From Bacteroidota bacterium (GTDB lineage Bacteria > Bacteroidota > Bacteroidia > Bacteroidales > CAIXZF01): a stretch of 64,000 nucleotides of DNA. The stretch lies in NCBI GenBank assembly GCA_022709385.1, contig JAKLIX010000008.1, forward strand, positions 90,654-154,653, given 5' to 3'. The translations under genes and the position numbers were made by a program. The notes under the pieces were generated by a model. That model saw only the letters and a list, made by a program, of their open reading frames with translations, searched no databases and was not told where the DNA came from. Positions 2,152-19,195 of the stretch are shown piece by piece. Positions within the stretch are counted from its first letter, which is position 1, and each line of letters begins with the position of its first letter.

Positions 2152-2236
2152 GAGGGTAAAAATGAACAAAATAATGAGAATTTGTTATATTTTGTGATTT
2201 TTTCTCATTTTTTGATTGTTTTTAATAATTTTTTAT

Positions 2237-2244
2237 TATATTTG
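2237..2244 (+). promoter_or_regulatory. Bacteroidota-type -7 promoter box (TATATTTG, consensus TAnnTTTG)
   Basis: Matches the Bacteroides sigma-A -7 consensus. It lies 26 nt upstream of the ATG at 2270 in a very AT-rich leader. Confidence 0.4.
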
Positions 2245-2269
2245 CGAATATTTCACAATATTATAAGCC

Positions 2270-3562: not shown

Positions 3563-4248
3563 AAATTGACAACGCTGTATTGAAACGGCATCAAGCCAGG
3601 CAGACAGAAAGGAAACTTGATGTCCGGGCAAAAAGGACCTACTATGTCATTGTTTGTGAAGGTGAAAAGACCGAGCCGAATTACTTTGAAGGCCTGAAAA
3701 AAGCGCTGCCGCCCGGGGTATTACAGACCTGCCAGATCGACATCCACGGCATTGGTGATAATACCCTTTCACTTGTCAGGAAAGCAAAAAAAATAAAAAA
3801 GTCTATAGAAGAGGATTCCGGCAGAGTGGTTGACAAATTATGGGTGGTGTTCGACAGGGACAGCTTTACCCCGGAATCCTTCAATAACGCCATCCTTAGC
3901 TGTCAGCATTCACGACCGAAGATCCATTGTGCCTGGTCAAACGAAGCTTTTGAACTTTGGTATTTGCTTCATTTCCATTTCTTTAACACAGCGATCAGCC
4001 GGGGTGACTATAAAAGCCTTATCGAAAAAGCCTTGCGGCCACATTTAGGCAAAGCCTACCGTTACCGTAAAAACAGCGAGGAAATGTATTCAATCCTGGA
4101 GAAATATGGCAATCAGGAGCAGGCTATTCAATGGGCCGGGAACCTGGTCAATCAACACGCCGGGAATAAGAATTTTGCGACACATAACCCCTGTACCATG
4201 ATTTATCAATTGGTTGAGGAACTCATCGTAATGCAAAAAACCAAGTAA
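3547..4248 (+). CDS. RloB-family (Toprim/OLD-like) protein (AbiLii-like)
   Basis: The hallmark RloB N-terminal motif 'YYVIVCEGEKTEPNYF' is at nt 3655-3687, with 'VVFDRD' further downstream. The gene is translationally coupled to the upstream ATPase. Confidence 0.85.
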   Translation: MAGKVKIDNAVLKRHQARQTERKLDVRAKRTYYVIVCEGEKTEPNYFEGLKKALPPGVLQTCQIDIHGIGDNTLSLVRKAKKIKKSIEEDSGRVVDKLWVVFDRDSFTPESFNNAILSCQHSRPKIHCAWSNEAFELWYLLHFHFFNTAISRGDYKSLIEKALRPHLGKAYRYRKNSEEMYSILEKYGNQEQAIQWAGNLVNQHAGNKNFATHNPCTMIYQLVEELIVMQKTK

Positions 4249-4395
4249 TGATATATCTGCAAGGCTTTACGGCAACATAGCCAACGGAATATGGTTTGTG
4301 TCAAATTTCTTTATACATTAGGCTAAGAAATCGAACCTCATGCTCCGATAAGATATCCTTCACAAAATCTGCACTTTAACTAATAGAATATATTT

Positions 4396-7300
4396 ATGAA
4401 GTCCCTCTCCCAACAACTCACAGTCCGCCCGTCTGTTTTTGACAAAAACCGAAGAGATGTGGTGCTCGACATTACCAACCTTATTGCTGGTCAGGTCGAT
4501 CCCGATGACTTTTTTAAAGAAAACTACATCACCAGGGGAATGCAGGATTTATACAGGGCAGTCTTTAAAAGACTTGAAGGCAACTCTGATGACGGATTGT
4601 TCCGACTCACTCAATCCATGGGAGGAGGCAAGACGCATAACATGATTGCCATAGGACTGCTGGCAAAATTTCCTGAATACCGTGAAAAGGTTATGGGTCA
4701 TATTTACAACACCACGCTGAAAGGCGGGGTCAATGTGATAGGATTCAGTGGAAGGGAAAAACCCGAGCTGGGAATCTGGGGCTACCTGGCAGAACAGCTG
4801 GGTAAAAAGGACATTTTTAAGAAGCGCTATGCTCCCCTGGAAGCTCCCGGACAGGAGGAATGGGAAGCCCTGCTTGCCAATGAGAAGCTGGTAATCATAC
4901 TGGATGAGTTGCCTCCTTACCTGGAAGGGGCCTATGGTAAAACTATCGGGGATTCAAACCTGGCCACAATTACCACCCAAGCCCTGAGTAACCTCTTTGT
5001 GGCCCTGGGGAAAAAGGAACTCAAGCAAGTAGTTGTCATTATCTCCGACCTGACTGCCAATTGGACACAGGGAAGTGAACTTATCGGTCAGATCGTTAAA
5101 AATCTGGAGGATGAAACCCACCGCGGGGCCAAACCCTTTACTCCTGTGGAGCAAACCGGTGATGAGATTTACAATATACTCAGGACCAGGATTTTTGACA
5201 ATCAGCCCAGCACTGAAGAGATTGAACCCATCGCCCTGGCATACGCTGCAATGATCAAGGAAGCCAAACAGATGGACATTACCACTGAAACTCCCGAACG
5301 CTTTGCCCAGGCAGTCAAAGACTCCTACCCTTTTCATCCTGCCATTAAAGACCTTTTCGCCCGCTTCAAGGAAAATCCGGGATTCCAGCAAACCCGTGGC
5401 CTGATCCGCTTAATGAGGACGATCGTATCCAGGATGTTTGATCCGGAAGAGGGCTGGGCAGGCAACAGTTACCTTATTGCTCCGTATGATCTTGATTTCA
5501 ATGATTCAGACACCCTGACTGAAATCGCCGGCATTAATTCTAAACTTACCAATGCCATCTCGCATGATATTTATGGAAACCCTTCTGCCGTAGCACAGAT
5601 ACTCGATGAGAAGTTTGATAACTCCCTGGCTTCTGATGCGGCCAAACTCATCCTTGTGTCTTCTCTGTCCGTGGTACAAAACGCCGTCAGGGGGCTTCAT
5701 GACTGGGAAATAATCCGCAACCTCTGCAAGCCGGGTGTTGAAATTTCGAAAGTAGCAGCAGAAATTCTGCCCGAACTCAAGAATACTTCCTGGTACCTTC
5801 ATATTGACAATACAGGGAAATTCCTTTACAAGGATGTCCAGAACGTCGTTGCCAAACTCAATGATTATATCAAAGGGTACAACCAGGAAAGCATCAAACT
5901 GGAAATCAAAGCCAAGCTACAAAGGATCTTCGAGCCAAAACTGAAGGATTGTTATCAAAAGGTATATGCATTACCAGCTCTCGACGAAATCGAGCCGGAA
6001 CAGTTTAAAACATCGCTCATTATCTATCAACCTTTTGCAGGCTCTGAGCTGCACCCCGACCTTGAAACTTTATTCAAAGATACCCAATGGCAGAACAGGG
6101 TTCTGTTTTTGACCGGCGATGCCCATTCTATGGCTTCTATTTTTGAGAATGCGGCAGGTCTGAAAGCCATTGATGCCATCCTGGGAGAATTTCGTTCAGA
6201 GAAGGTTCAACCCAATGATCCTCAGTTTATTGAAGCGGAAAAACTCAAAGAAACCTTCCTCTTCAAATTCAACAGTGCTGTCCGGGAAACTTTCGTCAAG
6301 ATATTCTACCCGACGAAAAACGGTCTCATGCCGGCAAATTTCCAGATGCAATTCAAGGATAATAATTTCGACGGCGAGGATCAGATCAAAAAGACACTGG
6401 TTGACAAAAGGAAATTCACAGAAGATATAAACTCTGATACCTTCCAGAAATATGTGGAAGGTAAATTATTCCACCCGCAGAAGACCCTGCCATGGAATGA
6501 GATCAAGAAAAAAGCAGCCACCAATACCGACTGGATCTGGCATAAGATGAATGCCCTGGACCAGTTGAAAGATGAATTAATCCTGAAAGATCTCTGGAGG
6601 GCCAACGGTGACTGGATTGAGATCGGTCCCTTTGAACCACCTAAAACCAGTGTGACTTACAGGATCATGAGCAGAAATGATGATACCGGCGAGGTTGCCC
6701 TGAAAATCATCCCCTCTCATGGTGACCGGGTACATTTTGAGATTGGTGACAAAGTTTCCACTGCCTCTCAGCAACTTGACCTGGCCCTACCCTTTAAGAC
6801 TTCCGAACTTAAAGCCACCTTCCTGTGTACCGACAGCAAAAATGTACACGAAACGGGTGACCCGCTGACGTTTAACAATACCATTACCCTTAAACACCGG
6901 TTTTTCCAGGATGATGACCGTCTGATGCTGGAATTGAAAGCAGCTCCGAAAGCTGACATCAGGTTCACGACCAACGGAAGTGACCCTTCCAATTCCGGAA
7001 AGCACTATGAAGGACCGGTGGCCATCCCCACTGGCGTCAGTTTCATTATTGCACTGGCGGAAAAGGATGGTATCAAGTCGGAGAAGAAGGAATACAAAGT
7101 CCCGGCAAGGGACCAGGGACCCTATGAGCCGATTAAAACAAAACCGGCCATCCTGAAAAGAAAGATCACCCGGCAGAGTACTTCAGAAACTTACGAATGG
7201 CTGAAGATGGTTAGCAAACACCGGATCATTCTGTCCGGGGTGACCTTTTCGATAAACGGGAAAAAATGGGCCAGCATTGATGTTTACCCTGAAATGCAGT

Positions 7301-7470
7301 TCGATCATGACAAGTTGAACACAGTACTGAGTTTCCTGAGGAATGAAATCCTCAACGAAGGAGAAATTGAACTATCGGCCCAGCAACTGCATTTTGAAAC
7401 AGGCCAGCTGTTATTGGATTATATCAGGGATACAAGAGACCAGTTAAAACCGAATGAAGTCGAACAATAA
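4396..7470 (+). CDS. DUF499-type P-loop ATPase (1024 aa)
   Basis: P-loop 'SMGGGKTHN' at nt 4621-4635 and Walker B-like 'VIILDELPPY'. The N-terminal layout and large size are typical of DUF499 proteins. It is the first gene of an overlapping gene chain. Confidence 0.8.
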   Translation: MKSLSQQLTVRPSVFDKNRRDVVLDITNLIAGQVDPDDFFKENYITRGMQDLYRAVFKRLEGNSDDGLFRLTQSMGGGKTHNMIAIGLLAKFPEYREKVMGHIYNTTLKGGVNVIGFSGREKPELGIWGYLAEQLGKKDIFKKRYAPLEAPGQEEWEALLANEKLVIILDELPPYLEGAYGKTIGDSNLATITTQALSNLFVALGKKELKQVVVIISDLTANWTQGSELIGQIVKNLEDETHRGAKPFTPVEQTGDEIYNILRTRIFDNQPSTEEIEPIALAYAAMIKEAKQMDITTETPERFAQAVKDSYPFHPAIKDLFARFKENPGFQQTRGLIRLMRTIVSRMFDPEEGWAGNSYLIAPYDLDFNDSDTLTEIAGINSKLTNAISHDIYGNPSAVAQILDEKFDNSLASDAAKLILVSSLSVVQNAVRGLHDWEIIRNLCKPGVEISKVAAEILPELKNTSWYLHIDNTGKFLYKDVQNVVAKLNDYIKGYNQESIKLEIKAKLQRIFEPKLKDCYQKVYALPALDEIEPEQFKTSLIIYQPFAGSELHPDLETLFKDTQWQNRVLFLTGDAHSMASIFENAAGLKAIDAILGEFRSEKVQPNDPQFIEAEKLKETFLFKFNSAVRETFVKIFYPTKNGLMPANFQMQFKDNNFDGEDQIKKTLVDKRKFTEDINSDTFQKYVEGKLFHPQKTLPWNEIKKKAATNTDWIWHKMNALDQLKDELILKDLWRANGDWIEIGPFEPPKTSVTYRIMSRNDDTGEVALKIIPSHGDRVHFEIGDKVSTASQQLDLALPFKTSELKATFLCTDSKNVHETGDPLTFNNTITLKHRFFQDDDRLMLELKAAPKADIRFTTNGSDPSNSGKHYEGPVAIPTGVSFIIALAEKDGIKSEKKEYKVPARDQGPYEPIKTKPAILKRKITRQSTSETYEWLKMVSKHRIILSGVTFSINGKKWASIDVYPEMQFDHDKLNTVLSFLRNEILNEGEIELSAQQLHFETGQLLLDYIRDTRDQLKPNEVEQ

Positions 7471-8086
7471 AAAAGGCCCCGTTCTTGACTTTGGTTTTAA
7501 CCCAAAGGACACGGAACATCATTTCCTGGTTTACATCAAACCCGGAGACAAAGAAGTGTATTTCTTTGAACAATTCTCCTTCACCGAGGATCAGGACTTT
7601 AGTGTACTCGCCTATACCATCAGCGGTCAGGGATCCACCTGCAAGTGCCTTCTGAATCATTCAAGATGGGATTTGATAAAAGCGGATGTAAGGGCCGAGT
7701 TCAACCGCAGGTTGAAAGAAATGGAGATCCCTTCATCCCAGTGGAAATCGAAGTACAACTATCTTCACCGCCTGCTGGGGAAAGAACTCCTGGTGCTGGC
7801 CTGGGCCATAGAGGAGGCAGATCCGGCCACCGTACCCCTGGCCATCCAAAACTGGCTTGGTTTAAAACCGGAAGAGCGCTGGTGGCTGTATACCATTACC
7901 AATGCTGCCACCGGGCATGCCATTAACGGCCGGGGCAAGGGATGGCGCAAGGCTTTACGCTTTGCCCTGACTGAAAACCCCGTCACACACGAGAAAATTG
8001 ACATGAACATCTACAAAGAATCCAATATTCTCAGCCTTTTTAAGGAAGACCCGGATTCTGAAACCCTCGGAAGCAAACATGAATAA
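7454..8086 (+). CDS. small protein in the DUF3780 position of DUF499/DUF1156 loci (DUF3780-like)
   Basis: The ORF is 210 aa. It overlaps the upstream gene by 17 nt and the downstream gene by 8 nt. The family call rests mainly on size and position, so the coding call is firmer than the family call. Confidence 0.6.
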   Translation: MKSNNKKGPVLDFGFNPKDTEHHFLVYIKPGDKEVYFFEQFSFTEDQDFSVLAYTISGQGSTCKCLLNHSRWDLIKADVRAEFNRRLKEMEIPSSQWKSKYNYLHRLLGKELLVLAWAIEEADPATVPLAIQNWLGLKPEERWWLYTITNAATGHAINGRGKGWRKALRFALTENPVTHEKIDMNIYKESNILSLFKEDPDSETLGSKHE

Positions 8087-10964
8087 ATCCTTCATAGAAA
8101 CCCAGTTCCCGGTTTCCAAAATATCAAAAGAGAGTTATAAAGAAAGAAAGGCCGGAGCCAGCCAGACGCTCACAGGACTGGGAAAATGGTGGGGACGAAA
8201 ACCCCTGGTGCTTGTACGTGCAACTATTCTGGGCCTCTTGATGCCATCTTCCGAAGACCCCAAAAAGGACAGGGAAATCTTCCTCAAACTGCTTACCATG
8301 GATGAAGAGGGTTTGCTCAGTAGAAAAGACAAAACCCTCTCTGCAAAGGAGTTGTTCCTTCATTCCCCGCAAAGCCTCAGAATCAGATATTTTGATCCTT
8401 CCTCCACAGTAGAAAAGGTAATCTGGCGAGATAACATCGGCAAAGAGGATACGGATGAACTTCAGGATAAGGTGTTTAAGGCTTTGAGCTATGACGACAA
8501 ACTGAAGTATTGCCTGAGGCCGGAGCATCTGGAAGGTCCTTCATCAGATACATGGGAAGAAATCAATGCCCATCTGAATACCTCAGCCCACTCCCTGCAA
8601 GAACTGGTCAACGAGCTGGGAATCCGGATTTTTGGTCACACACCAAGAATCGGGGATGCCTTCTGCGGCGGGGGATCCATACCTTTTGAAGCAGCCCGCC
8701 TGGGTTGTGACGTTTACGCCAGTGACCTGAACCCGGCTGCTGCACTGCTTACCTGGGCTTCCCTGAATATCATCGGCGGCGGCGAAAAAGTCCAGAAAGA
8801 AGTGCGTGAAGCTCAGGAAGAAGCCTTCCGGCTTGCCGACGGACAGATCACCGAATTGGGCATCGAACACAATGACAAGGGCTGGAGAGCTGATGCCTAC
8901 CTCTATTGCATAGAAGCAAGAAGCCCGAACAGCGGCTATTGGGTGCCACTTGCCCCGAGTTGGATCATATCAGAAAAATACAAGGTTTGTGCAGTTTTAC
9001 GGCCCGACCATGCCAATAAACGCTACCATATTGATATAGTTACTGATGCCGACAGTCAAACGTTCGCGAAGGCCAAACAGGGAACCATCCGGAATGGCGA
9101 ACTCATATGCCCGGAAGATCCCACAAAATCTTATGACATTTCCACCATCCGGGGTGACCGGAGAATGGATGGGGAAACCCGTTACGGTTTGAGACAATGG
9201 GAAAACGAAGATATAGTCCCTCGGCCCGAAGATGTCTTCCAGGAAAGGCTTTATTGCGTAAGGTACATAGGTCCTGATGGAAATCGCTATTATGTGGCAC
9301 CCGGCCCACGGGAATGGCAAAATGAAGAAAAGGTCCTTAATCTCATCCAAGAGAGATTTGAGGAATGGCAAGAGAAAGGATATATTCCCAGCTCGCTGAT
9401 TCCAGAAGGTGATAAAACAGAAGAACCAAAAAGAACCCGTGGTTGGACCCATTGGCATCATCTCTTTAATCCGAGGCAGTTGATTTACCATGGGCTTTTC
9501 ATGCAAAGCCTGATGGGAAAAGGCAACAATGAAAGACATCAAAAAGTCGGTGGCTGCATTTCTATTGGGGCTGCAATTGACAACCAATCAAGATTATGCG
9601 GATGGAATCCACATTTTTCAAAAGGCCCAGGTACCACAAGGAATGTATTTTTCAATCAGGCTTTGAACACACAGTATTATTATGGCACAAGAAGTTTTGG
9701 AGGAGTCCTCGATTTTTACCTCTCGGATCTACCGTATGAAAAAAAACTCACCCCTGAAATAAAAGTAGTGACATCTGATGCCCGGGAGAATCAGGACACT
9801 AATGAATTTTGGATCACTGACCCGCCCTATGCTGATGCAATCAATTATCATGAGCTTGGTGATTTCTTTTTAAGCTGGTATGAAAAGCATATAGGGAATA
9901 CTTTCCCAGAATGGTATTCGGAATCAAAAGCAGCATTAGCTGTCAAGGGGACGGGAAGTTCCTTTAACCAGAGTATGGTAGATTGCTACCAGAATTTCAC
10001 CCGGCATATGCCTGACAATGGTGCCCAGGTGGTCATGTTCACCCACCAGGACAGTCGGGTCTGGGCCGACCTGGCATTAATTTTATGGGCCTCGGGCCTC
10101 CAGGTCACAGCCGCCTGGACTATACAAACCGAGACCGATTCTGTAGGGATAAAATCAGGTAATTATGTGCAGGGTACCGTAATTATGGTCCTCAGGAAAC
10201 AGCAGACCAGCAATATTGCTTTTTTAAGCGACATCCAGGCGGATGTGGAATATGAGGTCAAGCAGGAACTCCGGAGCATGCTGGCCCTGGATGACCGGGA
10301 TGATCCCAATTTCGGGGATACGGATTACCAGCTTGCAGCCTATGTGGCTGCCTTGCGGGTAATTACGAGGTATAAAAAGATAGAAGACATTGATGTTCAC
10401 TACGAATTGAGCAGGGAAAGGCAGGCCGGGGAGGTCAGTGAGATCCAGGAGATCATCAAAAGTGCCGTGAAGGTTGCCTGTGAATACCTGGTACCCGGTG
10501 GCTTTGACGCTTCCGTGTGGAGACAACTCAGCGGCGAAGAACGCTTTTATCTCAAGGGCCTTGAAATCCAAAGCCATGGGGAATACCGGAATGGTGTATT
10601 CCAGGAACTTGCCCGTGGGTTCGGCCTGAGGGATTACAAACTGTTTCTGCAAACAGGTTCGGCCAATGAAACCCGGCTGGCCTCAGCTGTAGAGTTTAAC
10701 AATAAGGAGCTTCAAACCGAGGGATTCGGCAGTACGCTGGTCAGGCATGTTTTATTCGCCGTCAGGGAAACGCACAAGAACCAGTCTGCACGTTCCGGCC
10801 GGCAGTGGCTGTACAACGAGTTGCCCGATTATTGGGGGAGCCGCCTGCGGATCATCCATATTCTGGCCTACCTGCAAAGACTGGGCATCTATCTGGACAA
10901 CTGGCAGGATGATGTTTATGCAGCCCGGCTGTTGCAGGGCTATCTTGAAAATGATACGATATGA
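8079..10964 (+). CDS. DUF1156-domain DNA amino-methyltransferase (N6-adenine or N4-cytosine class)
   Basis: N-terminal DUF1156 signature 'ETQFPVSKISKESYKER...LTGLGKWWGRKPLVLVRA'. SAM motif I 'DAFCGGGSIPFEAARLG' starts at nt 8655. Catalytic motif IV 'DPPY' is at nt 9819-9830. Confidence 0.88.
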   Translation: MNKSFIETQFPVSKISKESYKERKAGASQTLTGLGKWWGRKPLVLVRATILGLLMPSSEDPKKDREIFLKLLTMDEEGLLSRKDKTLSAKELFLHSPQSLRIRYFDPSSTVEKVIWRDNIGKEDTDELQDKVFKALSYDDKLKYCLRPEHLEGPSSDTWEEINAHLNTSAHSLQELVNELGIRIFGHTPRIGDAFCGGGSIPFEAARLGCDVYASDLNPAAALLTWASLNIIGGGEKVQKEVREAQEEAFRLADGQITELGIEHNDKGWRADAYLYCIEARSPNSGYWVPLAPSWIISEKYKVCAVLRPDHANKRYHIDIVTDADSQTFAKAKQGTIRNGELICPEDPTKSYDISTIRGDRRMDGETRYGLRQWENEDIVPRPEDVFQERLYCVRYIGPDGNRYYVAPGPREWQNEEKVLNLIQERFEEWQEKGYIPSSLIPEGDKTEEPKRTRGWTHWHHLFNPRQLIYHGLFMQSLMGKGNNERHQKVGGCISIGAAIDNQSRLCGWNPHFSKGPGTTRNVFFNQALNTQYYYGTRSFGGVLDFYLSDLPYEKKLTPEIKVVTSDARENQDTNEFWITDPPYADAINYHELGDFFLSWYEKHIGNTFPEWYSESKAALAVKGTGSSFNQSMVDCYQNFTRHMPDNGAQVVMFTHQDSRVWADLALILWASGLQVTAAWTIQTETDSVGIKSGNYVQGTVIMVLRKQQTSNIAFLSDIQADVEYEVKQELRSMLALDDRDDPNFGDTDYQLAAYVAALRVITRYKKIEDIDVHYELSRERQAGEVSEIQEIIKSAVKVACEYLVPGGFDASVWRQLSGEERFYLKGLEIQSHGEYRNGVFQELARGFGLRDYKLFLQTGSANETRLASAVEFNNKELQTEGFGSTLVRHVLFAVRETHKNQSARSGRQWLYNELPDYWGSRLRIIHILAYLQRLGIYLDNWQDDVYAARLLQGYLENDTI

Positions 10965-12649
10965 CAGAAGCTCAGATTAGAACATATCTTTCTCAAGGCG
11001 AGGGACTCAGAATTGAATTCAAAAAATCAAGGCTGGCCTTACCTGGCAACTTGTTTGAGAGTGTTTGCTCATTTCTGAACCATAGTGGAGGGACAATCTT
11101 GCTTGGCGTTGATAATGATGGCAGCTTTGAAGGTGTAGATAGAACTACGCTTGACAAACTGATGGACAACGTTGCAACCCTATCCAATAATCCTGAATTT
11201 CTTGACCCGCCGTTCCTCCTGTTCCCGATCAAACATGAAATTGACGGGGAGAATATTATTGTTATTCAAGTCCCGGAAAGCTCACAAGTACACAAGTTTA
11301 AAGGTATAGTTTTTGACAGAAGCAGGGACGGGGATTTTAAAGTGATTAAGCCTGAAAGAATCGCTGAAATTGCAAACCGGAAAAGAAACCTGTTTACTGA
11401 AGGCAGAATATTGCCTTTCCTTGAATATAAACATTTCAGGGAAGACCTGTTTGAAAAAGCCAGGGCACTGATTCGTTCAAGAAAACCAGATCATCCATGG
11501 CTTTTGTTTGATAACCCGACATTACTCGAAAAAGCGGGCCTTTATAAAACTGACCTTCAGACCGGCGAAGTGGGCTATACCCTTGCTGCTTTGTTATTGT
11601 TTGGAAGAAATGAATTCATTGAAAGCACACTTCCGGCGCTAAAAATTGATGCACTTGTCAGAATAGAAAATACTGATCGCTATGACGACCGGGATGAAAT
11701 CAGGCATACTAACCTGATAGAAGCATATGAAAGGTTAATGGCGTTTGTCGGCAAACACCTCCCGGATAAGTTCCACCTGGAAAACGGGCAAAATGTAAGT
11801 TTAAGGGACATTATCTTCAGGGAAGTTATTGCAAATATCCTGGTGCACAGGGAATATACCCATGCGATGCCAACCACATTTGTCATTTATCAGGATAGGG
11901 TTGAAACTCTCAATCCGAATAATCCACATTTCCATGGGTTAATTCTACCCGAAAAAGTGGTTCCCTTCCCTAAGAATCCTGCCATATCAAAATTCTTTAT
12001 TCAATTGGGCAGGGTTGAAGAATTAGGATCAGGGGTTATGAATGTCAGTAAGTACCTACCCCATTACACCCAGGGTGCATTACCACAGTTTATTGAAAAT
12101 GATGTATTTACGACGATTATACCGCTTAAGGTGCACACACTTGGGGCGTTAGCAAAGGAATTTTTGAGGGCCATTCTGCCCGGGCACATACAAGCAGAAG
12201 AGGTGCTTACATTGCTTACAAGTCTCCAGATCACATCAGAAATTGCAAAAGAAGCCCACGATCCTGGCCTGTTGTTTTATCGATTGGGAGTATGCTGGAT
12301 GGAAAAAGGGCTTAAGCTGCTTAGAGATAAAGATCATGATATCAGCAAACTAACAAAAGAAGAAGAAATAAAGGGACTAAGCTGGGAGGAAAAAGGGACT
12401 AAGCTGATCGAAAAAGGACTGTTAAACATGGTTCAGATTCTGATACTATGTTTAAGGGAAAAAAGTTTACAGGAACTGGCTGATATCACGGGGTATTCAA
12501 ACAGATCGAAATATAAATCCTCCTATATTGACCCGTTAGTTAACTATAGGTTAATAGAATTAACCATTCCGGACAAACCAAAGTCCCCTGCCCAAAAATA
12601 TAAAACAACCGTTGCAGGAAGGTATTTCCTTGGAGGTGGACAAATTTAA
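10961..12649 (+). CDS. Schlafen/AlbA_2 (divergent AAA_4) + HATPase_c_4-like + C-terminal wHTH protein
   Basis: N-terminal 'YLSQGEGLRIEFKKS...ESVCSFLNHSGGTILLGVDNDG' is typical of AlbA_2. Mid-protein 'REVIANILVHREY' is the HATPase-like part. C-terminal 'PDKPKSPAQKYKTTVAGRYFL' is a typical wHTH tail. The start overlaps the methylase stop (ATGA). Confidence 0.8.
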   Translation: MTEAQIRTYLSQGEGLRIEFKKSRLALPGNLFESVCSFLNHSGGTILLGVDNDGSFEGVDRTTLDKLMDNVATLSNNPEFLDPPFLLFPIKHEIDGENIIVIQVPESSQVHKFKGIVFDRSRDGDFKVIKPERIAEIANRKRNLFTEGRILPFLEYKHFREDLFEKARALIRSRKPDHPWLLFDNPTLLEKAGLYKTDLQTGEVGYTLAALLLFGRNEFIESTLPALKIDALVRIENTDRYDDRDEIRHTNLIEAYERLMAFVGKHLPDKFHLENGQNVSLRDIIFREVIANILVHREYTHAMPTTFVIYQDRVETLNPNNPHFHGLILPEKVVPFPKNPAISKFFIQLGRVEELGSGVMNVSKYLPHYTQGALPQFIENDVFTTIIPLKVHTLGALAKEFLRAILPGHIQAEEVLTLLTSLQITSEIAKEAHDPGLLFYRLGVCWMEKGLKLLRDKDHDISKLTKEEEIKGLSWEEKGTKLIEKGLLNMVQILILCLREKSLQELADITGYSNRSKYKSSYIDPLVNYRLIELTIPDKPKSPAQKYKTTVAGRYFLGGGQI

Positions 12650-12660
12650 ATGACTCATTA

Positions 12661-15378
12661 ATGATCAACCGATATTCTTCAAGGACACTGCCGCTGGATG
12701 AGAGCTTATTAAATGCTAGGCTTCTCAATGCGAAATCTTATGACCGGGTGGCTGGGTACTTCAGCTCTTCTATCCTTGAAATTGCCGGTGAATCCATCAA
12801 CTCCATTCAAGGGACCGTCAGGATCATCTGTAATTCCGAGATGGAGGAAGCAGATGTGGTCACGGCACGGGCTGCGGAAATGTCGATGAAACGGGAATGG
12901 TGCAACAGTATAGACACCAGGCTGAATTACACCGGAACCGACCGGTTTTCAAAACTATACTCCTTACTTACCTCCAATAAAATTGAAGTGAGGGTTCTGC
13001 CCTCCACTACTTTCGGGCTGATTCACGGGAAAATAGGCGTTGTCACAGGATCTGACGGAAAAAAGATGGCTTTTATCGGCAGCACCAATGAAACTTATGC
13101 TGCCTGGCGGATGAACTACGAGGTTGTTTGGGAAGACGATTCCCCGGAGGCAGTGGAATGGGCACAATCAGAATTTGATGCGTTGTGGCAGCATCCTCAT
13201 GTTACCCGATTATCTGATTTTATTATACAGGACATCGGCAGGATCGCAAAAAGAAAGATCATAAACCTGGATTCCTGGCAGGCCATTAAGCAACCGGCCA
13301 GTGTCGTAGTGGAGAGCCCTGTTTACAGATCCGAATACGGTTTATGGGCACACCAGAAGTATTTTGTAAAAAAGGCTTTTGACGATCATCTTTCAGGAAA
13401 GGGAGCCCGTTACTTATTAGCCGACCAGGTTGGACTTGGAAAGACCGTTCAACTTGCCTTATCGGCTCAACTCATGGCCCTGACCGGAAGCAAGCCGGTA
13501 CTGATTATTGTACCCCGCACCCTGCTATTTCAATGGCAGGATGAAATGAATAATCTCCTTGCCATGCCATCAGCTGTTTGGGACGGCAAACAATGGAATG
13601 ATGAGAACGGGGTAAAATATCCTTCAATCGGACCGGAATCCATCAGCAAATGTCCGCGCCGCGTTGGTATTGTAAGCCAGGGATTGATTACCCGGAAAAG
13701 CGAAGCTGCCTCCGCCCTTTTGAATATTGAATATGAATGTATTATCCTGGATGAATGTCACCGGGCCAGGAGAAAGAACCTAAAGGCAGATGCAGAGAAT
13801 GAACCTGTCAATCCGAACAACCTGTTGGCATTCTTATTCAAAATTGCTTCGCAAACGAAGAACCTTCTCATAGCCACGGCAACGCCTGTACAGTTATTTC
13901 CCATTGAGGCGTATGATTTGCTCGATGCCCTCAGCCGAAGCAATGACCACGTACTTGGTAACGTATTTTCCCTCTGGAAGAAAGACAAAAAACTTATCCT
14001 CGATCTGGTAACGGAGAAACAGGATCCTCCAATGAGCTTCAGTTCAATGTGGGAATGGGTAAGGAATCCTTTTCCGGCTACATCAGAAAATGACCAGTTA
14101 TTTGGCTCAATCCGTCGTAGATTGAATATGTCAGATAAAGACGCTGTCGTTGAAGGAAACAGGGAAATCGAAATGAAACCGGCCGATAAAAACAAGATTG
14201 AACGGCTGGGTAAGGAATTCTTCACTCTGTACAACCCCTTTATCAGGCATATTGTGAGAAGGACAAGGGAATTTCTGGAAAATGAAAACGATCCTTCGAC
14301 CGGTGAACCCTACCTGAAAAAGGTTGAAGTTACCCTCTTTGGTGAGGATAGCAAAGACGCTATCCTCTTACCAGGCTACCTGAGAGATGCCTACGAATCA
14401 GCGGAAGAGTTTTGCAGACTTCTTGGAGAACGAATGAAATCGGCGGGATTTATGAAGACCATGCTTCTCAGGCGGATGGGAAGTTCCCTCGAAGCCGGCA
14501 AAAATACAACCATGAAGATCCTTGGGAACTTGTCAGAGGAAATCTTCCAGGAAGAAGATGATAATGAATCAAGTGAAGAGGAAAATATGGTGCTGGAACA
14601 GGAGGTTTCTTCCCTCACGGCATCCCTGACCAATAAGGAAAAAGAAGTCCTTCAATTATTGCTCAGGCAATTAGAAAAACACCAGGATAAAGATCCTAAA
14701 TACTTCAAGATCAAAGAATTCTTGTTCGACCGGGGCTGGATGGAGTCGGGTTGTATCCTGTTTTCTCAATATTTCGACACCTGCTGGTATATGGCAAACC
14801 AGCTTTCATCTGAACTGAAAGACATTTCAATCGGCGTGTATGCAGGGGGGAATAAATCAGGACTGCTGATTAAAGGCATATTTACGCCCTACACCCGGGA
14901 AGACTTGAAAAAGATGGTCCAGGCAGGCAAGATCAGACTCCTGTTCGGAACAGATGCTGCAAGTGAAGGTTTAAACTTACAGAAACTCGGAACATTGATC
15001 AATATTGACCTTCCCTGGAACCCAACCCGTCTGGAACAACGCAAGGGCCGGATTCAACGCATCGGACAAATCAGGGATAAAGTGCTTATTTACAACATGC
15101 GCTATAAAGACTCCATTGAAGACAAGGTGCATGGGATACTATCGAGCCGGTTAAAGAAGATCTACGATATGTTCGGGCAATTACCAGATGTGCTGGAGGA
15201 TGTTTGGATTGAGGCAGCACAGGGGCATATCGAGAAGGCCAACGAGATCATTGATGCCATCCCCAACCAGCATCCGTTTGAGATGAAATACAACAAAGTC
15301 GAGCAAATCGACTGGGAGAGCTGCTCGGAGGTTTTGAATGAGGTGGAGAGAAGAGAAATACTAAATAAATCCTGGTAA
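12661..15378 (+). CDS. PLD-family (HKD) nuclease domain fused to an SNF2-type helicase
   Basis: N-terminal 'GLIHGKIGVV...FIGSTNET' (H-x-K ... G-S-x-N) at nt 13024-13095. SNF2 motif I 'DQVGLGKT' at nt 13432-13446. Motif II 'LDECH' at nt 13750-13761. Motif VI 'EQRKGRIQRIGQ'. Confidence 0.88.
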   Translation: MINRYSSRTLPLDESLLNARLLNAKSYDRVAGYFSSSILEIAGESINSIQGTVRIICNSEMEEADVVTARAAEMSMKREWCNSIDTRLNYTGTDRFSKLYSLLTSNKIEVRVLPSTTFGLIHGKIGVVTGSDGKKMAFIGSTNETYAAWRMNYEVVWEDDSPEAVEWAQSEFDALWQHPHVTRLSDFIIQDIGRIAKRKIINLDSWQAIKQPASVVVESPVYRSEYGLWAHQKYFVKKAFDDHLSGKGARYLLADQVGLGKTVQLALSAQLMALTGSKPVLIIVPRTLLFQWQDEMNNLLAMPSAVWDGKQWNDENGVKYPSIGPESISKCPRRVGIVSQGLITRKSEAASALLNIEYECIILDECHRARRKNLKADAENEPVNPNNLLAFLFKIASQTKNLLIATATPVQLFPIEAYDLLDALSRSNDHVLGNVFSLWKKDKKLILDLVTEKQDPPMSFSSMWEWVRNPFPATSENDQLFGSIRRRLNMSDKDAVVEGNREIEMKPADKNKIERLGKEFFTLYNPFIRHIVRRTREFLENENDPSTGEPYLKKVEVTLFGEDSKDAILLPGYLRDAYESAEEFCRLLGERMKSAGFMKTMLLRRMGSSLEAGKNTTMKILGNLSEEIFQEEDDNESSEEENMVLEQEVSSLTASLTNKEKEVLQLLLRQLEKHQDKDPKYFKIKEFLFDRGWMESGCILFSQYFDTCWYMANQLSSELKDISIGVYAGGNKSGLLIKGIFTPYTREDLKKMVQAGKIRLLFGTDAASEGLNLQKLGTLINIDLPWNPTRLEQRKGRIQRIGQIRDKVLIYNMRYKDSIEDKVHGILSSRLKKIYDMFGQLPDVLEDVWIEAAQGHIEKANEIIDAIPNQHPFEMKYNKVEQIDWESCSEVLNEVERREILNKSW

Positions 15379-15418
15379 ATAATAATTTTAAGTAAACATC
15401 ATCACAAAATACATCATT

Positions 15419-16366
15419 ATGAGCAAGATAATATTTATGAGAATTGCCTGGATGAAATTCTATAAGGGGAATACCAAGCAAGATAAACCTATAGGTGCAG
15501 GAGCATATGTTCAAGAAAATGAAGATGGCGGTGAAGTTTGCAATTTCCTTGATATAAATGGCTTGTGCTATGGATATGCAAGAATGCCCCCAGGCAGGAA
15601 TATTGATATTAAGCGAGAAGGAGCCAGCCCATTTGACACATCAGTAAATGATGTAGATGTAATCTTTATTGCGACAAATCCGAAAGATGGTGGTCAGTAT
15701 ATTGTTGGATTTTACAATAATGCTATTGTTTATAAGAAACCTCAAACAATAAAAAACAAGAAACGTGGAAACCACAATAACTATGTTTGCTTATGTCCTT
15801 CAAAATCAGCATTTCTTGTATCTGAAAAAGATAGGGTATATGATATCACCGGTGCTGGGCAAGCTAATATCTGGCATGCCAGTGAGTACTTAACTAACAC
15901 TGAGTTACGAAGATTGACAACTTATCTTCTCAAAGTTAAAGGATCATTGCAAACGGCACGTAAATCTTCAGGTAGCTTTAATTCGAATATAAAAGCTAAC
16001 GCTGAAGCTGAGATGAAGGCGATGGAGTATGTAAAGCAATATTTCGAAAGCAATGAATTTAAGGTAATAGATATTCACAAGGATAATTTAGGTTGGGATT
16101 TTACTGCTATCAAAAATACAGTTGAGTACCAACTCGAGGTCAAAGGATTGTCTGGGAACTTCACCTCAATTGATCTGACACCCAATGAATTTGATAAGAT
16201 GGAAAACAAAAAATCAACCTATCTAGTTTGTATTGTTTCAAATCTTGGAACCGGGGAGGCACCAAAATTGGATTTAATTTCCTATTATGGTAGTACTCTC
16301 AAATCGGACAGTGGCATCGAAATGAAGATTACTAAAATTATTGGTGCAAGAATTTCAAGAAAATAA
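15419..16366 (+). CDS. two-domain protein: unknown N-terminal domain + DUF3883-type (restriction-endonuclease-fold) C-terminal domain
   Basis: C-terminal 'EAEMKAMEYVKQYF...GWDFTAI...YQLEVKGLSG...IDLTPNEF...YLVCIV' fits the DUF3883/NOV_C nuclease-fold pattern. I do not recognise the first ~190 aa. The gene is very AT-rich. Confidence 0.65.
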   Translation: MSKIIFMRIAWMKFYKGNTKQDKPIGAGAYVQENEDGGEVCNFLDINGLCYGYARMPPGRNIDIKREGASPFDTSVNDVDVIFIATNPKDGGQYIVGFYNNAIVYKKPQTIKNKKRGNHNNYVCLCPSKSAFLVSEKDRVYDITGAGQANIWHASEYLTNTELRRLTTYLLKVKGSLQTARKSSGSFNSNIKANAEAEMKAMEYVKQYFESNEFKVIDIHKDNLGWDFTAIKNTVEYQLEVKGLSGNFTSIDLTPNEFDKMENKKSTYLVCIVSNLGTGEAPKLDLISYYGSTLKSDSGIEMKITKIIGARISRK

Positions 16367-16389
16367 TCATATCAATTTCAAGGACTTTT

Positions 16390-18351
16390 ATGAAAATTTC
16401 AACTGTACTTGACCATATCGATAATGGGCACATGGCCCTCCCGGAATTTCAACGAGGATATGTTTGGAACCGGGAACAGGTCAGAGGCCTCTTCGACTCA
16501 CTTTATAGACGACATCCAATCGGTGGCTTACTTGTGTGGGCAACTGAATCACAAAGTGCTGAACACAGAGGGGATGGAGAGCTGGCAGCTGGTATTGTAA
16601 AATTACTGCTCGATGGTCAACAGCGGATGACTACATTATATGGGGTTATAAGGGGAAAAGCACCAAAGTTCTTTGATGGAAATGCAGCAACTTTCACAGG
16701 ACTTTTCTTTCATCTTGAAAATGAAATATTTGAATTTTATCAACCTTTGAAGATGAAGGATGATAAGTTGTGGATAGATGTCACGCAATTGATGAAAAAA
16801 GGAGATGAAGGCCTGGGCGAAATAATTGCAAGATTGTCCCAACAAGCGGAATTTGTTGCAAAAACAGGTGAGCATGTTGGAAAGTTAGCTAAGTTACTTG
16901 GTATAAGGGAAGTAGATCTTCATGTTGAAGAAGTGACCGGATCGGACAAAACCATTGATATAGTGGTAGAAATTTTTAATAGAGTTAACAGCGGTGGAAC
17001 AAAATTATCGAAAGGAGATCTGGCTCTTGCCAAGATTTGTGCAGAGTGGCCGGATGCCCGGGAGAAAATGAAAGAGAAATTAAAAGTTTGGGAGAACATT
17101 GGTTATCACTTTAGTCTGGATTGGCTATTGCGTTCTGTTAATACAGTTATCACAGGTGAAGCTAAGTTCCTGTACCTGCATGATAAAAATCCAGCAGAGG
17201 TGCAAAATGGATTAGAAAGAGCAGGTAGGCACCTGGATTCATGCCTGAATATGATCAGTGGAAGACTCGGTTTGGATCACGACCAGGTATTGTTCAGCCG
17301 GTATTCTTTGCCAGTCATGGTGCGGTATCTTGACAAACGAAATGGCCTGCTTGATGCAAAAGAAAGAGATAAACTGCTATTCTGGTTTGTTCAGGCAGGA
17401 ATGTGGGGGCGATTTTCGGGTTCGACTGAATCAATAATCGACAAGGATCTGGAAGTTCTAGAATATGGTGATAACATGCTGGATAATTTATTGGAGAATT
17501 TGCGGATGTGGCACTCCGGATTAAGAATTGAACCGTATCATTTCACCGGTTGGAGCTTGGGTGCGAGGTTTTATCCGGTTTTGTATATGCTCACCAGGAT
17601 GGGAGAAGCAAGGGACTGGGGGAATGGACTTCCGCTAAAAGCACATCTTCACGGTAAAATGAGCAAACTGGAAGTTCATCACATTTTTCCTAAAGCAAAG
17701 CTTTACAAACATAACAATACTGGTTACAAACGACCCGAGGTAAACGCTTTAGCAAACTATTGTTTCCTGACTAAAGAGACCAATCTACTAATTAGTGATA
17801 GATTTCCTGAAGAATATTTCCCGGAAATTGAGCAGAACCACCCAGGAGCTCTTGCCTCTCAATGGATCCCACAAGACCCAAATCTTTGGAAAACAGATAA
17901 CTACCTTGAATTCCTTGAAGCACGGAAAATCCTGATTGCAAATGAAGCCAATAGACAAATGGAAGATCTTCTTCATGGTGAATTACATTGGATGGATACA
18001 TCCGCCCCAGCAATTTCATTAACTGAGACCATTGGTGGTGGAATAACGACTGAGAAAGAAGAAGAAGAACTAAATGAAGTCAATAATTGGATCGCTGCAT
18101 TAGGATTGCCTCGCGGCACTTTACTTTTCGAATATTATGATCCTATGGGAAATCAATTGAAGGCAGTTTTTGATCTGGCCTGGCCTTCAGGATTACAGGA
18201 AGAACTTAGTCAACCAGTTGCAATACTACTGAATGAAAACGATGAACTTGTAAAATTTGCCCTCGAATCCGGTTATAAGTGCTTCACTAACATTTCAGAT
18301 TTCAAGCGATATATCAACAGTGACATTCTTGTCATGGAAATTGAATTGTAA
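16390..18351 (+). CDS. GmrSD-family protein (DUF262 N-terminal + DUF1524 HNH-like C-terminal), type IV restriction-like
   Basis: DUF262 motifs 'LPEFQRGYVW' (nt 16441-16467) and 'DGQQR' (nt 16612-16626). DUF1524 His-Me motif 'LEVHHIFPK...NALANYCFLTKETN' starts near nt 17671. About 150 extra C-terminal residues follow. Confidence 0.85.
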   Translation: MKISTVLDHIDNGHMALPEFQRGYVWNREQVRGLFDSLYRRHPIGGLLVWATESQSAEHRGDGELAAGIVKLLLDGQQRMTTLYGVIRGKAPKFFDGNAATFTGLFFHLENEIFEFYQPLKMKDDKLWIDVTQLMKKGDEGLGEIIARLSQQAEFVAKTGEHVGKLAKLLGIREVDLHVEEVTGSDKTIDIVVEIFNRVNSGGTKLSKGDLALAKICAEWPDAREKMKEKLKVWENIGYHFSLDWLLRSVNTVITGEAKFLYLHDKNPAEVQNGLERAGRHLDSCLNMISGRLGLDHDQVLFSRYSLPVMVRYLDKRNGLLDAKERDKLLFWFVQAGMWGRFSGSTESIIDKDLEVLEYGDNMLDNLLENLRMWHSGLRIEPYHFTGWSLGARFYPVLYMLTRMGEARDWGNGLPLKAHLHGKMSKLEVHHIFPKAKLYKHNNTGYKRPEVNALANYCFLTKETNLLISDRFPEEYFPEIEQNHPGALASQWIPQDPNLWKTDNYLEFLEARKILIANEANRQMEDLLHGELHWMDTSAPAISLTETIGGGITTEKEEEELNEVNNWIAALGLPRGTLLFEYYDPMGNQLKAVFDLAWPSGLQEELSQPVAILLNENDELVKFALESGYKCFTNISDFKRYINSDILVMEIEL

Positions 18352-18393
18352 TTATGGGTCACATATTGCCATCAAAGGTCTTTTCGTGAATAG

Positions 18394-18627
18394 ATCCACG
18401 CTGCCTACCAAAGCCAGTGGTCACGCTATGCTGCATTCGACGCAAACATCCCCGGCATCAACCCTGATTACCATACCTCCGTCCGGAAAGATGTTCTTGA
18501 AGAAATTGACGGACCCATGCTCAAATACGGCATATAATCACTGGATAAACAAAGGATCATTCTTCCAGGGAGAAAAGCCGACTGGCCGGATAGAAACCGC
18601 CTGAAACCAGGTTCTCAGAATTCCTGA
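18394..18627 (+). pseudogene. possible start-less gene remnant with one in-frame stop
   Basis: This frame reads protein-like: 'IHAAYQSQWSRYAAFDANIPGINPDYHTSVRKDVLEEIDGPMLKYGI*SLDKQRIILPGRKADWPDRNRLKPGSQNS*'. It has no start codon and an in-frame TAA at 18535. It lies between the last island gene and tRNA-Val. I do not recognise the family. Confidence 0.25.
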
Positions 18628-18664
18628 ATAGAATATAACTCACACCCTCACTCTCACCCGCTTG

Positions 18665-18739
18665 TGGGTTGTACTGGACTCGAACCAGTGGCCCCCGCCC
18701 TGTCAAGGCGATGCTCTGAACCAACTGAGCTAACAACCC
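18665..18739 (-). tRNA. tRNA-Val (anticodon GAC)
   Basis: The reverse complement folds as a cloverleaf. Acceptor stem is GGGTTGT/ACAACCC, the D-arm is GCTC..GAGC, the anticodon loop is TTGACAG, the T-arm is ACTGG-TTCGAGT-CCAGT, and the discriminator is A. Confidence 0.9.
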
Positions 18740-18810
18740 CTATTTTAATTTCCAATTAGCAACACGCTCACGCTCAATCTCGCTCTCACTCTCACTCTCA
18801 CTCTGTTTCT

Positions 18811-18865
18811 CCCCCGCCCTGTCATCCCGCACGTGCGGGACTGAACCAACTGAGCTAACAACCCC
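18811..18865 (-). pseudogene. truncated tRNA-Val-like fragment with a 16-nt palindromic replacement
   Basis: It keeps the tRNA 5' acceptor strand, the D-arm 5' half, and the anticodon-loop/3' stem segment. 10 nt of the tRNA (AGCATCGCCT) are replaced by TCCCGCACGTGCGGGA (nt 18825-18840). The T-arm and 3' acceptor strand are missing. Confidence 0.7.
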
Positions 18866-18929
18866 TATTTTAATTTCCAATTAGCAACACGCTCACGCTC
18901 GCTCTCACTCTCGCTCTCACTCTGCTTCC

Positions 18930-18984
18930 CCCCCGCCCTGTCATCCCGCACGTGCGGGACTGAACCAACTGAGCTAACAACCCC
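18930..18984 (-). pseudogene. second truncated tRNA-Val-like fragment, same structure
   Basis: Nearly identical to 18811-18865. The palindrome is at nt 18944-18959. Confidence 0.7.
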
Positions 18985-19195
18985 TTATTTTAACCTCCCC
19001 GCTGCCAACTTCCCGTCTCAGTGCTGCAAAATTAATATTAAAATTTGAATTTCAAAACAGCAGCAGATTACATTCGGTTCGCATGCTTCTCACCCGCCTA
19101 CGGCTTCGTGCAAACAAGATTCCTTGCCTGCAATATCCCGTTTCCACGCTGCCATGGAAGGTCGTATCTTTAAGCCTTCATTCAATCAAAATGCC

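Follow-up and report, generated by a model that had tools for sequence, protein, structure and literature searches.

The seven plus-strand genes examined here most probably make up a mosaic defence island at a Bacteroidales tRNA-Val locus, not the seven-gene system that the initial annotation had suggested. Sequence comparison places four of them (g1, g2, g3, and g5) as the known four-gene "Type-2 BREX-related" (BR) cassette, which is the conserved functional unit, and we conclude that the three accessory genes (g4, g6, and g7) were acquired independently of this core. What suggests that g6 and g7 are also functionally independent of the core is their distribution. Throughout, the window is the whole stretch of 64,000 nucleotides that was analyzed.

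Locus layout and the four-gene core

The seven same-strand genes are a genuine and confirmed observation, with the list of open reading frames (ORFs) reproducing the coordinates and strand first assigned to them over 4396-18351, or ~14 kb (Table 1). The left edge of the proposed unit at 4396 proved arbitrary, as co-directional ORFs extend back to 199, and all ORFs of at least 200 amino acids within 199-18351 lie on the plus strand. These include an AbiL pair (2270-4248) just upstream of the cassette, which is an accessory module of the island in its own right; in the relatives L006, L175, and L177 the pair is found between the methylase and the PLD-helicase instead.

Table 1. Features of the island and its tRNA-proximal flank, in window coordinates
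Feature	Coordinates	Strand	Description
AbiLi-like	2270..3562	+	OLD-family ABC ATPase (AAA_21); Pfam AAA_21 E 8.3e-39; PADLOC AbiLi E 6.5e-97
AbiLii / RloB	3547..4248	+	TOPRIM-like, partner of the AbiLi-like ATPase; Pfam RloB E 1.3e-43; PADLOC AbiLii E 3.4e-27
g1	4396..7470	+	DUF499 AAA+ ATPase, C-terminal FnIII-like domains; core gene
g2	7454..8086	+	DUF3780 protein; core gene
g3	8079..10964	+	DUF1156 N6-adenine DNA methyltransferase; core gene, predicted self-marking
g4	10961..12649	+	Schlafen/AlbA_2 + HATPase_c_4 + Fic-like_C (wHTH) protein (Pfam)
g5	12661..15378	+	N-terminal HKD (PLD) nuclease fused to SNF2 helicase; predicted core effector
g5-g6 spacer	15379..15418	+	40 nt, AT-rich, unstructured; relaxed Bacteroidota -7-like box TAATTTTA at 15383
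g6	15419..16366	+	Putative two-domain nuclease; accessory gene
g6-g7 spacer	16367..16389	+	23 nt, unstructured; also in related contig L172
g7	16390..18351	+	GmrSD/BrxU-like; N-terminal DUF262, C-terminal His-Me finger motif; accessory gene
tRNA-Val(GAC)	18664..18739	-	ARAGORN; Rfam tRNA, 65 bits
Truncated tRNA-Val copies	18769..18990		Two partial repeats covering the 5' half of tRNA-Val and the sequence upstream of it; repeat length 119-125 nt, families D1, D2

Four PADLOC models match the core genes end to end: DUF499 for g1 (E 6.7e-197; Pfam PF04465, E 4e-26, plus Fn3_assoc), DUF3780 for g2 (PF12635, E 1.4e-47), DUF1156_MTase for g3 (E 2.4e-284; PF06634), and PLD_Helicase for g5 (E 2.8e-234; PLDc_2, SNF2-rel_dom, and Helicase_C), in which H122-x-K124 is invariant. 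Two of the four exceed their NCBIfam equivalog cutoffs, g3 with 1348 bits against 1000 (NF042963) and g5 with 1257 against 1100 (NF042964), and the other two fall below theirs, g1 with 795 bits against 1200 (NF042962) and g2 with 156 against 200 (NF042961). [quoted passage not shown] The DUF3780 protein is a hallmark of these systems (PMC12839542). In homologous loci the DUF499 gene is conserved upstream of DUF3780, and across many phyla the order DUF499-DUF3780-DUF1156-[insert]-PLD-helicase is kept. The PLD-helicase marks the core as the Type-2 variant, in contrast to the Type-1 (Hma) systems, whose helicase carries a C-terminal REase. By analogy with what has been published for related systems, the methylase would label the host's own DNA, and invader DNA without this mark would be attacked by the ATPase and the helicase-nuclease.

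The initial annotation had counted g4 as a cassette member. The slot that it occupies between methylase and helicase is variable, with an insert of >400 nt in 29 of 68 loci, and its GC content at third codon positions (GC3) is 0.40 against 0.52-0.59 in the core, which makes g4 an accessory gene in a variable slot. By tblastn, 4 of 80 loci (L017, L064, L077, and L084) have a homolog in this slot, and phmmer finds weaker relatives directly ahead of the helicase in two more, L073 and L034. The architecture of g4 is known as that of a BREX/BR auxiliary effector (PMC12839542).

The two downstream nuclease genes

The DUF3883-type nuclease fold first assigned to g6 is borne out by a C-terminal match to PF13020 (NOV_C, formerly DUF3883; aa 197-283, E 1.8e-12) with an intact set of PD-(D/E)xK residues (E198, D227, E240, and K242, invariant among homologs). 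In the AF2 model (pLDDT 87) this domain is similar to the Hjc, EcoRV, and SPARDA nucleases, and by PADLOC it resembles the C terminus of HmaA (E 1.9e-8). The N-terminal domain (~aa 1-178) is beta-rich and gave neither a Pfam match at E values up to 10 nor a PDB sequence match; to call it a sensor is a guess about a fold without a recognized match. Two modification-dependent enzymes, YenY4I (PUA-DUF3427-DUF3883) and McaZI (DUF3427-DUF3883), have DUF3883 as their catalytic domain (Lutz et al. 2019, PMC6765204). Like them, g6 joins an N-terminal noncatalytic domain to a C-terminal DUF3883 domain of PD-(D/E)xK type with an intact D...ExK, but its N-terminal domain matches neither PUA nor DUF3427, and modification dependence of g6 is only putative. 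The gene is located in a defence island.

For g7, first described as a DUF262/DUF1524 enzyme, the DUF262 half stands (PF03235, GmrSD_N, E 1.1e-27). The DUF1524 (GmrSD_C) model of Pfam does not match g7 itself, yet a His-Me finger motif is present and homologs do match: a Nostoc homolog, 53% identical, hits GmrSD_C (E 9.6e-5), and in another homolog, split by an IS, PGAP gives the C-terminal piece the name "DUF1524." The g7 family profile finds BrxU (7P9K, E 1.9e-25), with which it shares a DH(I)xP...N...N motif, and H430-H431...N452...N456...N465 of g7 lines up with the part of BrxU that contains HVDHIYPK. These residues are invariant, as is the DGQQR motif (D75-G-Q-Q-R79). The C-terminal half of g7 diverges from BrxU. 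The AF2 model of g7 (pLDDT 46.7) was unusable. Homologs across phyla are 69-72% identical. The best PADLOC match is HEC-05 (E 1.9e-45); the HEC models describe candidates embedded in Hma (DUF499-type) loci.

Linkage, composition, and distribution of g6 and g7

The physical chaining of the last two genes to the cassette, without detectable terminators, stands. Both gap lengths were the same when recomputed; a search in and near the two gaps found no terminator-like sites on the plus strand; and the gaps fold at -1.4 and -1.6 kcal/mol, more weakly than shuffled controls (z +1.5 and +2.1). The next strong structure past 18351 is, as noted before, the tRNA region. Because the spacers are short and without terminators, read-through from the cassette, itself predicted from these features, probably accounts for at least part of the expression of g6 and g7.

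One could take this arrangement to mean a single integrated system of seven genes, in which the terminal nucleases are dedicated, co-regulated, and dependent effectors of the methylation cassette. Co-directional genes and unstructured, terminator-free spacers favor such a reading, as do rare parallels in which a related gene follows a PLD-helicase: a g7 (GmrSD) homolog after 43 nt in L038 (1 of 67 cassettes) and a protein consisting of only the g6 N-terminal domain in 2 of 67, both from Halanaerobium (L068, after 47 nt, and L070). Auxiliaries of this kind have also been argued to be functionally integrated (PMC12839542). Since these three related genes directly follow PLD-helicases, with gaps of ~45-55 nt, there is some affinity of g6/g7-type genes for this position. 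We nevertheless consider integration quite unlikely. Our synteny comparison covered 64 genome loci and the 3 closest relatives (63-64% identity), each with 1.5 kb or more of sequence beyond the PLD-SNF2 gene, and in none of these 67 homologous cassettes does the g6-g7 pair follow that gene. Genes elsewhere at this position are mixed, including a ParA-like ATPase, an OLD-ABC ATPase, a VWA protein, and opposite-strand genes. The pair is thus not a fixed follower of the PLD-SNF2 gene, and homologous cassettes that never carry both genes are essentially what we find. The two families reside mostly in unrelated, R-M-like loci, apart from each other: g6 homologs often adjoin type I R-M genes, with no DUF499, DUF1156, or PLD-helicase gene beside them in 83 loci, and g7 homologs are located between hsdS and hsdR or beside DISARM genes. 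The core, moreover, already has its own HKD nuclease effector in g5.

Composition likewise separates the two genes from the core, as the initial annotation had noted, with both GC and GC3 lower. GC is 0.36 for g6 and 0.41 for g7 against 0.46-0.49 for g1, g2, g3, and g5, and GC3 is 0.31 and 0.36, a large gap from the core, with the host at 0.578±0.036. A later independent insertion, offered then as the alternative, is the better-supported reading and extends to g4.

The similarly low GC3 of g6 and g7 and their 23-nt distance could also reflect a sensor-nuclease/GmrSD module of their own, brought in by one acquisition and working as a pair independent of the cassette. The related contig L172 inherits both genes as a block, in which g6 and the 5' two thirds of g7 are 95-99% identical in nucleotide sequence to those of the window. 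It is the only close relative available for these genes, however, and its contig, which ends inside g6, is the same chromosomal locus, so that it provides no independent co-occurrence. Elsewhere, a GmrSD-type protein is just 1 of the 65 immediate neighbors scanned across the 83 g6-homolog loci, and none of seven g7-homolog contexts, L038 included, contains a g6 homolog. A paired module is therefore unlikely.

Island setting and layered immunity

The tRNA-Val(GAC) gene is the likely integration site, since its 3' end faces the island. Neither of the truncated tRNA-Val copies beyond it is called a tRNA by ARAGORN or Rfam. Whereas the window has no integrase beside the tRNA, L172 encodes a tyrosine integrase in the interval from its g7 homolog to the same tRNA-Val. 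The missing integrase, together with a composition atypical for the host, might mark g6 and g7 as decaying and currently functionless passengers of an old integrative element. This is very improbable: both ORFs are full length, with start codons consistent with homolog N termini and invariant catalytic residues; the dN/dS of g7 against L172 (0.088 at dS 0.55) indicates strong purifying selection; and the identical g6 protein occurs on 14 contigs of the collection, with the layout unchanged in the five loci examined.

The favored reading, a mosaic island, would have the three accessory genes gained at two known soft spots of the cassette. The Schlafen-type g4 would have entered the methylase-helicase slot; g6, with its putative sensor-like N-terminal domain, would have been appended downstream and g7 placed after it. 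Each is most likely autonomous. As a type IV enzyme, g7 may cleave hypermodified (cytosine-modified) phage DNA that evades the methylation-based core, and g6 would be a second endonuclease, possibly modification-dependent. The outcome would be layered immunity, as shown experimentally for BREX plus BrxU.

The pairing of a methylation-based system with a type IV-like GmrSD enzyme, noted in the initial annotation, is a real and recurrent arrangement, and stacking of defences in this way has been described already. PD-(D/E)xK, GmrSD, OLD-ABC/TOPRIM, and Schlafen auxiliaries are cataloged beside BREX and BR systems in a 2026 account of BREX-related auxiliary effectors (PMC12839542), and in the pEFER defence island BrxU, a type IV enzyme of the GmrSD family, is embedded in a type I BREX system (Picton et al. 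2021, PMC8565348). Both pEFER and the present locus link a methylation-based multigene system to a type IV-like enzyme with DUF262 and His-Me finger parts. They differ in the partner, which is BREX in pEFER and a PglZ-less BR system here, and in position, BrxU being embedded in its system whereas g7 is appended behind the last core gene.

The conserved core and its accessory genes

The first 18.3 kb of the window carries genes on the + strand only, seven of which, g1 to g7, had been proposed in the initial annotation to form one unit ending in two nuclease genes. This 14-kb array is better described as a four-gene Type-2 BREX-related (BR) core with separately acquired accessory genes. The physical observation behind the proposal was sound, with open reading frame (ORF) coordinates in agreement with seven + strand genes and the short gaps after g5 and g6, but the longer unit itself is not supported by comparison with homologous loci.

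Features at the left end of the window and around tRNA-Val
Feature	Coordinates	Strand	Assignment
Left-edge ORF	199-1476	+	Helicase_C domain
AbiL-type ATPase	2270-3562	+	AAA_21 OLD-like ABC ATPase
AbiL-type partner	3547-4248	+	RloB
g1	4396-7470	+	DUF499 AAA+ ATPase
g2	7454-8086	+	DUF3780
g3	8079-10964	+	DUF1156 N6-adenine methyltransferase
g4	10961-12649	+	Schlafen/AlbA_2 + HATPase_c_4 + wHTH
g5	12661-15378	+	HKD (PLD) nuclease + SNF2 helicase
g6	15419-16366	+	Unmatched N-domain + DUF3883/NOV_C PD-(D/E)xK
g7	16390-18351	+	DUF262 + putative His-Me finger, GmrSD/BrxU-like
ORF overlapping the g7 3' end	18257-18604		No family match; set aside
tRNA-Val(GAC)	18664-18739	-	tRNA

The conserved unit of the locus is four genes, g1, g2, g3 and g5. 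These match end to end the PADLOC models DUF499, DUF3780, DUF1156_MTase and PLD_Helicase, and they also match four NCBIfam "anti-phage-associated" models, NF042961-NF042964. Curated cut-offs are passed by g3 (NF042963, 1348 bits against 1000) and g5 (NF042964, 1257 bits against 1100), whereas g1 scores below its equivalog cut-off (NF042962, 795 bits against 1200). The g1 product nevertheless matches PADLOC DUF499 over its full length (E 6.7e-197) and PF04465 (E 4e-26), with Fn3_assoc at aa 846-892, and g2 is a standalone DUF3780 (PF12635, E 1.4e-47) overlapping the end of g1 by 17 nt. The methyltransferase g3 matches PADLOC DUF1156_MTase at E 2.4e-284, and g5 has PLDc_2 at aa 23-176 followed by SNF2 and Helicase_C, with H122-x-K124 invariant. 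A protein named in NCBI from a "Bacteroidales bacterium" metagenome-assembled genome is identical to the g5 product, and the same locus is present on contig DAOTET010000008 of assembly GCA_035454435.1.

The Type-2 BR name and components come from a 2026 comparative study (PMC12839542), which describes an often FnIII-like DUF499 ATPase, a standalone DUF3780, a DUF1156-headed N6-methyltransferase and a helicase with an N-terminal HKD nuclease. All of these features are found in g1, g2, g3 and g5. Canonical BREX, in contrast, has the alkaline-phosphatase-like marker PglZ, and no PglZ domain was found in any ORF scanned (199-18604). By analogy with the model in that study, the core would methylate host adenines, and unmarked DNA would be attacked via the ATPase and the HKD-helicase.

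To define what travels with this core, we mapped all window proteins onto 80 genome loci from many phyla that carry PLD-helicase homologs (47-63% identity). The gene order DUF499-DUF3780-DUF1156-[variable insert]-PLD-helicase is conserved across homologous loci, and an insert of more than 400 nt separates methylase and helicase in 29/68. This is the slot that g4 occupies, and its exact architecture is listed as a BREX/BR auxiliary effector (PMC12839542). Downstream of the helicase, a tightly appended same-strand gene is present in 17 of 64 loci, with heterogeneous identities. Scanned jointly, slot inserts and tight downstream genes include Schlafen/HATPase_c_4 proteins, OLD-type ABC ATPases with RloB, HEPN, DUF3800, HIRAN and Mrr. 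Accessory genes recurrently insert at two places, between methylase and helicase and at the helicase gene's 3' end.

The closest cassette, L175, has a third insertion point, with three genes between DUF3780 and methylase (L175:1524-4685) encoding a short DUF262 (GmrSD_N) protein, an AAA_15/DUF3696 ATPase and a YoeB-like product. In the Saprospiraceae cassette L177, a reverse transcriptase of group II intron type (RVT_1 + GIIM) apparently splits the DUF499 gene (L177:1-2397).

The census that bears on g6 and g7 covered the 64 genome loci in which 1.5 kb or more of sequence follows the PLD-helicase, plus the three closest relatives. The g6-g7 pair follows the PLD-SNF2 gene in 0/64 loci and is absent from all three relatives, and the four closest cassettes (L006, L175, L176 and L177; 62-64% identity) have neither gene. 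Single relatives are rare among the 64: a g7 homolog follows the helicase only in L038, from Chloroflexota, after a 43-nt gap, and a g6 relative only in L068 and L070, both Halanaerobium, where it is the N-domain alone. Composition agrees with synteny. Third-position GC content (GC3) is 0.52-0.59 in the core genes, near the host value of 0.578±0.036, and 0.40, 0.31 and 0.36 in g4, g6 and g7, the very genes that synteny singles out as accessory. Independent addition of the last two genes, which the initial annotation had raised as its alternative, is therefore favored both by composition and by synteny, one of the observations named beforehand as able to refute the longer unit. In annotation terms, the boundary of a system is not defined by close gene spacing without terminators.

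The L038 protein is itself unusual. Encoded directly after the PLD-helicase in a Chloroflexota metagenome-assembled genome (L038:12788-14893), it is a g7-like GmrSD fused to a C-terminal Schlafen/AlbA_2, joining in a single protein domains that are separate in the window, in g7 and g4.

Expression and mobility of the downstream pair

The arrangement of g6 and g7 suggests that they are transcribed with the cassette. Their start codons agree with the N termini of homologs and leave spacers of 40 nt (15379-15418) between g5 and g6 and 23 nt (16367-16389) between g6 and g7. As had been noted from the sequence, neither gap holds a terminator-like hairpin: a terminator scan found no + strand site in either spacer, both have less structure than shuffled controls, and the next structured element after g7 is tRNA-Val(GAC). 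Because the spacers are short, unstructured and without a terminator, g6 and g7 are likely expressed by read-through transcription. An internal promoter of their own is conceivable, since promoter models are uninformative for this host; the sigma-70 scan model is not applicable to Bacteroidota and hence not to this Bacteroidales host. A relaxed -7-like box, TAATTTTA, lies at 15383 in the g5-g6 gap. It is only a weak hint of a g6-g7 promoter because the Bacteroidota -7 box TAnnTTTG, which cannot be calibrated in the window, occurs within 120 nt upstream of just 1/18 host ORFs.

The related metagenomic contig L172, from SRR31558116, carries the g6-g7 block, with 95-99% identity through g6 and the initial two thirds of g7. 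Across window positions 17650-18351 (g7 aa ~420-653), nucleotide identity to L172 declines steadily to ~70% and disappears shortly ahead of the stop codon. The variability of this C-terminal stretch may reflect a specificity module or a junction left by recombination. Separate histories for the two genes, considered on the basis of dS against L172 (0.14 for g6, 0.55 for g7), were dropped, as sliding-window identity is high through g6 and two thirds of g7. The dN/dS of g7 against L172 is 0.088, indicating strong purifying selection, and g7 is therefore not a decaying remnant.

Beyond the block in L172 come three cargo genes and a tyrosine integrase, then the tRNA-Val seen in the window, and the region is therefore a tRNA-Val island. 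Unlike L172, the window copy has no integrase. A repeat search of 1-18663 found no att-like direct repeat of the tRNA-Val 3' end, and the far boundary of the island is outside the window. A PAD_porph (peptidyl-arginine deiminase-like) gene, absent from the window, is found downstream of defense genes in L172 (L172:2457-5970), where it adjoins a UDG-like gene and the integrase, and in L176 (L176:14254-15512).

Two putative nucleases that accompany methylation-based systems

The general idea that a self-methylating system is here chained to a type IV-like enzyme is correct and already published; such linkage is known both experimentally and from comparative genomics. The assignment of g7 as a GmrSD-type DUF262/DUF1524 enzyme held in part. 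Its N-terminal DUF262 (ParB-like NTPase) is matched at aa 3-216 (PF03235, E 1.1e-27), the DGQQR motif D75-G76-Q77-Q78-R79 is invariant, and the family profile matches BrxU (7P9K) at E 1.9e-25. At the C-terminal end, H430, H431, N452, N456 and N465 are invariant and align with the BrxU nuclease motif (HH...N...N...N), but Pfam GmrSD_C (DUF1524) is not matched directly, with HNH_2 alone appearing at E 0.15. One homolog with 53% identity matches GmrSD_C at E 9.6e-5, narrowly under the cut-off (22.7 bits against 23), and PGAP labels a fragment of a split homolog "DUF1524". The AF2 model of g7, from an alignment of 18 sequences, was unusable (pLDDT 46.7). By analogy with BrxU (PMC8565348), g7 would most likely cleave cytosine-hypermodified DNA, which would fit with a partner that marks DNA with m6A.

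Homologs of g7 (~650 aa, P0188-P0306) with 69-72% identity occur in Planctomycetota, Rhizobiales (Sinorhizobium, Brucella and Mesorhizobium) and deltaproteobacteria. Identity of this level across phyla is unusually high for a defense gene and suggests recent, wide horizontal spread of the family. These homologs lie between hsdS and hsdR, beside DISARM genes on plasmids, or alone. A candidate second g6-g7 pair, on plasmid pNPM2 of Nostoc, was rejected. There a g7 homolog beside DISARM genes, with DrmB/DrmC and a UvrD helicase upstream, is preceded by a PD-(D/E)xK gene, but the nuclease is a PDDEXK_1 protein unrelated to g6.

The description of g6 as a DUF3883-type nuclease-fold protein was borne out. 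Its C-terminal DUF3883/NOV_C PD-(D/E)xK domain is matched by PF13020 (E 1.8e-12), and in the homolog alignment the catalytic residues E198, D227 and E240-x-K242 are invariant. In the AF2 model (pLDDT 87), the C-domain fold resembles Hjc, EcoRV and SPARDA nucleases; a fold search against the PDB matched this domain only, weakly (best E ~6e-3). The N-terminal ~175 aa is conserved, aromatic-rich and beta-rich. At E values up to 10, aa 1-190 matches no Pfam family, including PUA-superfamily and DUF3427 modification readers, and the N-domain profile finds only noise among PDB sequences.

The protein search gave 66 g6 homologs (28-42% identity), and we inspected 83 loci carrying one. None of the 83 has a DUF499, DUF1156 or PLD-helicase gene beside it, and a GmrSD-like immediate neighbor was found once among 65 neighbors scanned. 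Many neighbors are type I restriction-modification (R-M) genes. At two loci the homolog is part of a type I R-M operon, with hsdM on one side and hsdS on the other; in L086 it is immediately 3' of hsdM and in L088 immediately 5' of hsdS. The g6 and g7 families are therefore both promiscuous companions of methylation-based systems. Among the loci examined, the two families were not found together outside this lineage.

With its putative sensor, g6 shares the sensor-plus-DUF3883 layout of the modification-dependent enzymes YenY4I and McaZI (PMC6765204); its N-domain matches none of the known readers. Tentatively, and with somewhat less than even confidence, we propose that g6 represents an undescribed accessory-nuclease family in R-M-type operons, with an N-domain that could be a new modified-DNA reader or an anti-restriction sensor. 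If the domain reads modified DNA, g6 would be a new type IV enzyme; if it senses anti-restriction proteins, g6 would guard methylation-based systems as a backup effector. As the sole new lead at the locus, the g6 N-terminal domain is also the one part of it that could be worth experimental study.

Defense stacking around the core

The locus is a clean natural example of defense stacking around a single Type-2 BR core, with all four recently catalogued classes of BR auxiliaries, OLD-ABC/TOPRIM, Schlafen, PD-(D/E)xK and GmrSD, in one co-directional island. The first of these is an AbiL-type pair, an OLD-like ABC ATPase with RloB, encoded on the same strand and ending 147 nt before g1. In L006, L175 and L177, three of the four closest cassettes, the homologous pair is found between methylase and PLD-helicase, at 50-55% identity in L006. 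Evidently this module has changed position while the core stayed constant. The ORF at the left edge of the window has no PADLOC or NCBIfam match and probably encodes the C-terminal end of a longer protein whose gene starts before the window, and the defense island probably extends beyond the window as well.

At the other end, the intact tRNA-Val is accompanied by two additional truncated copies of its 5' half (18769-18990 and 18716-18798) at 119-125 nt spacing. Each carries ~60 nt of the sequence upstream together with short CTCTCAC-type repeats, and in each a GC hairpin (TCCCGCACGTGCGGGA) takes the place of some of the anticodon arm. No tRNA is called at either copy. Repeated integration and excision may have left them as scars, or they may stem from tandem duplication.
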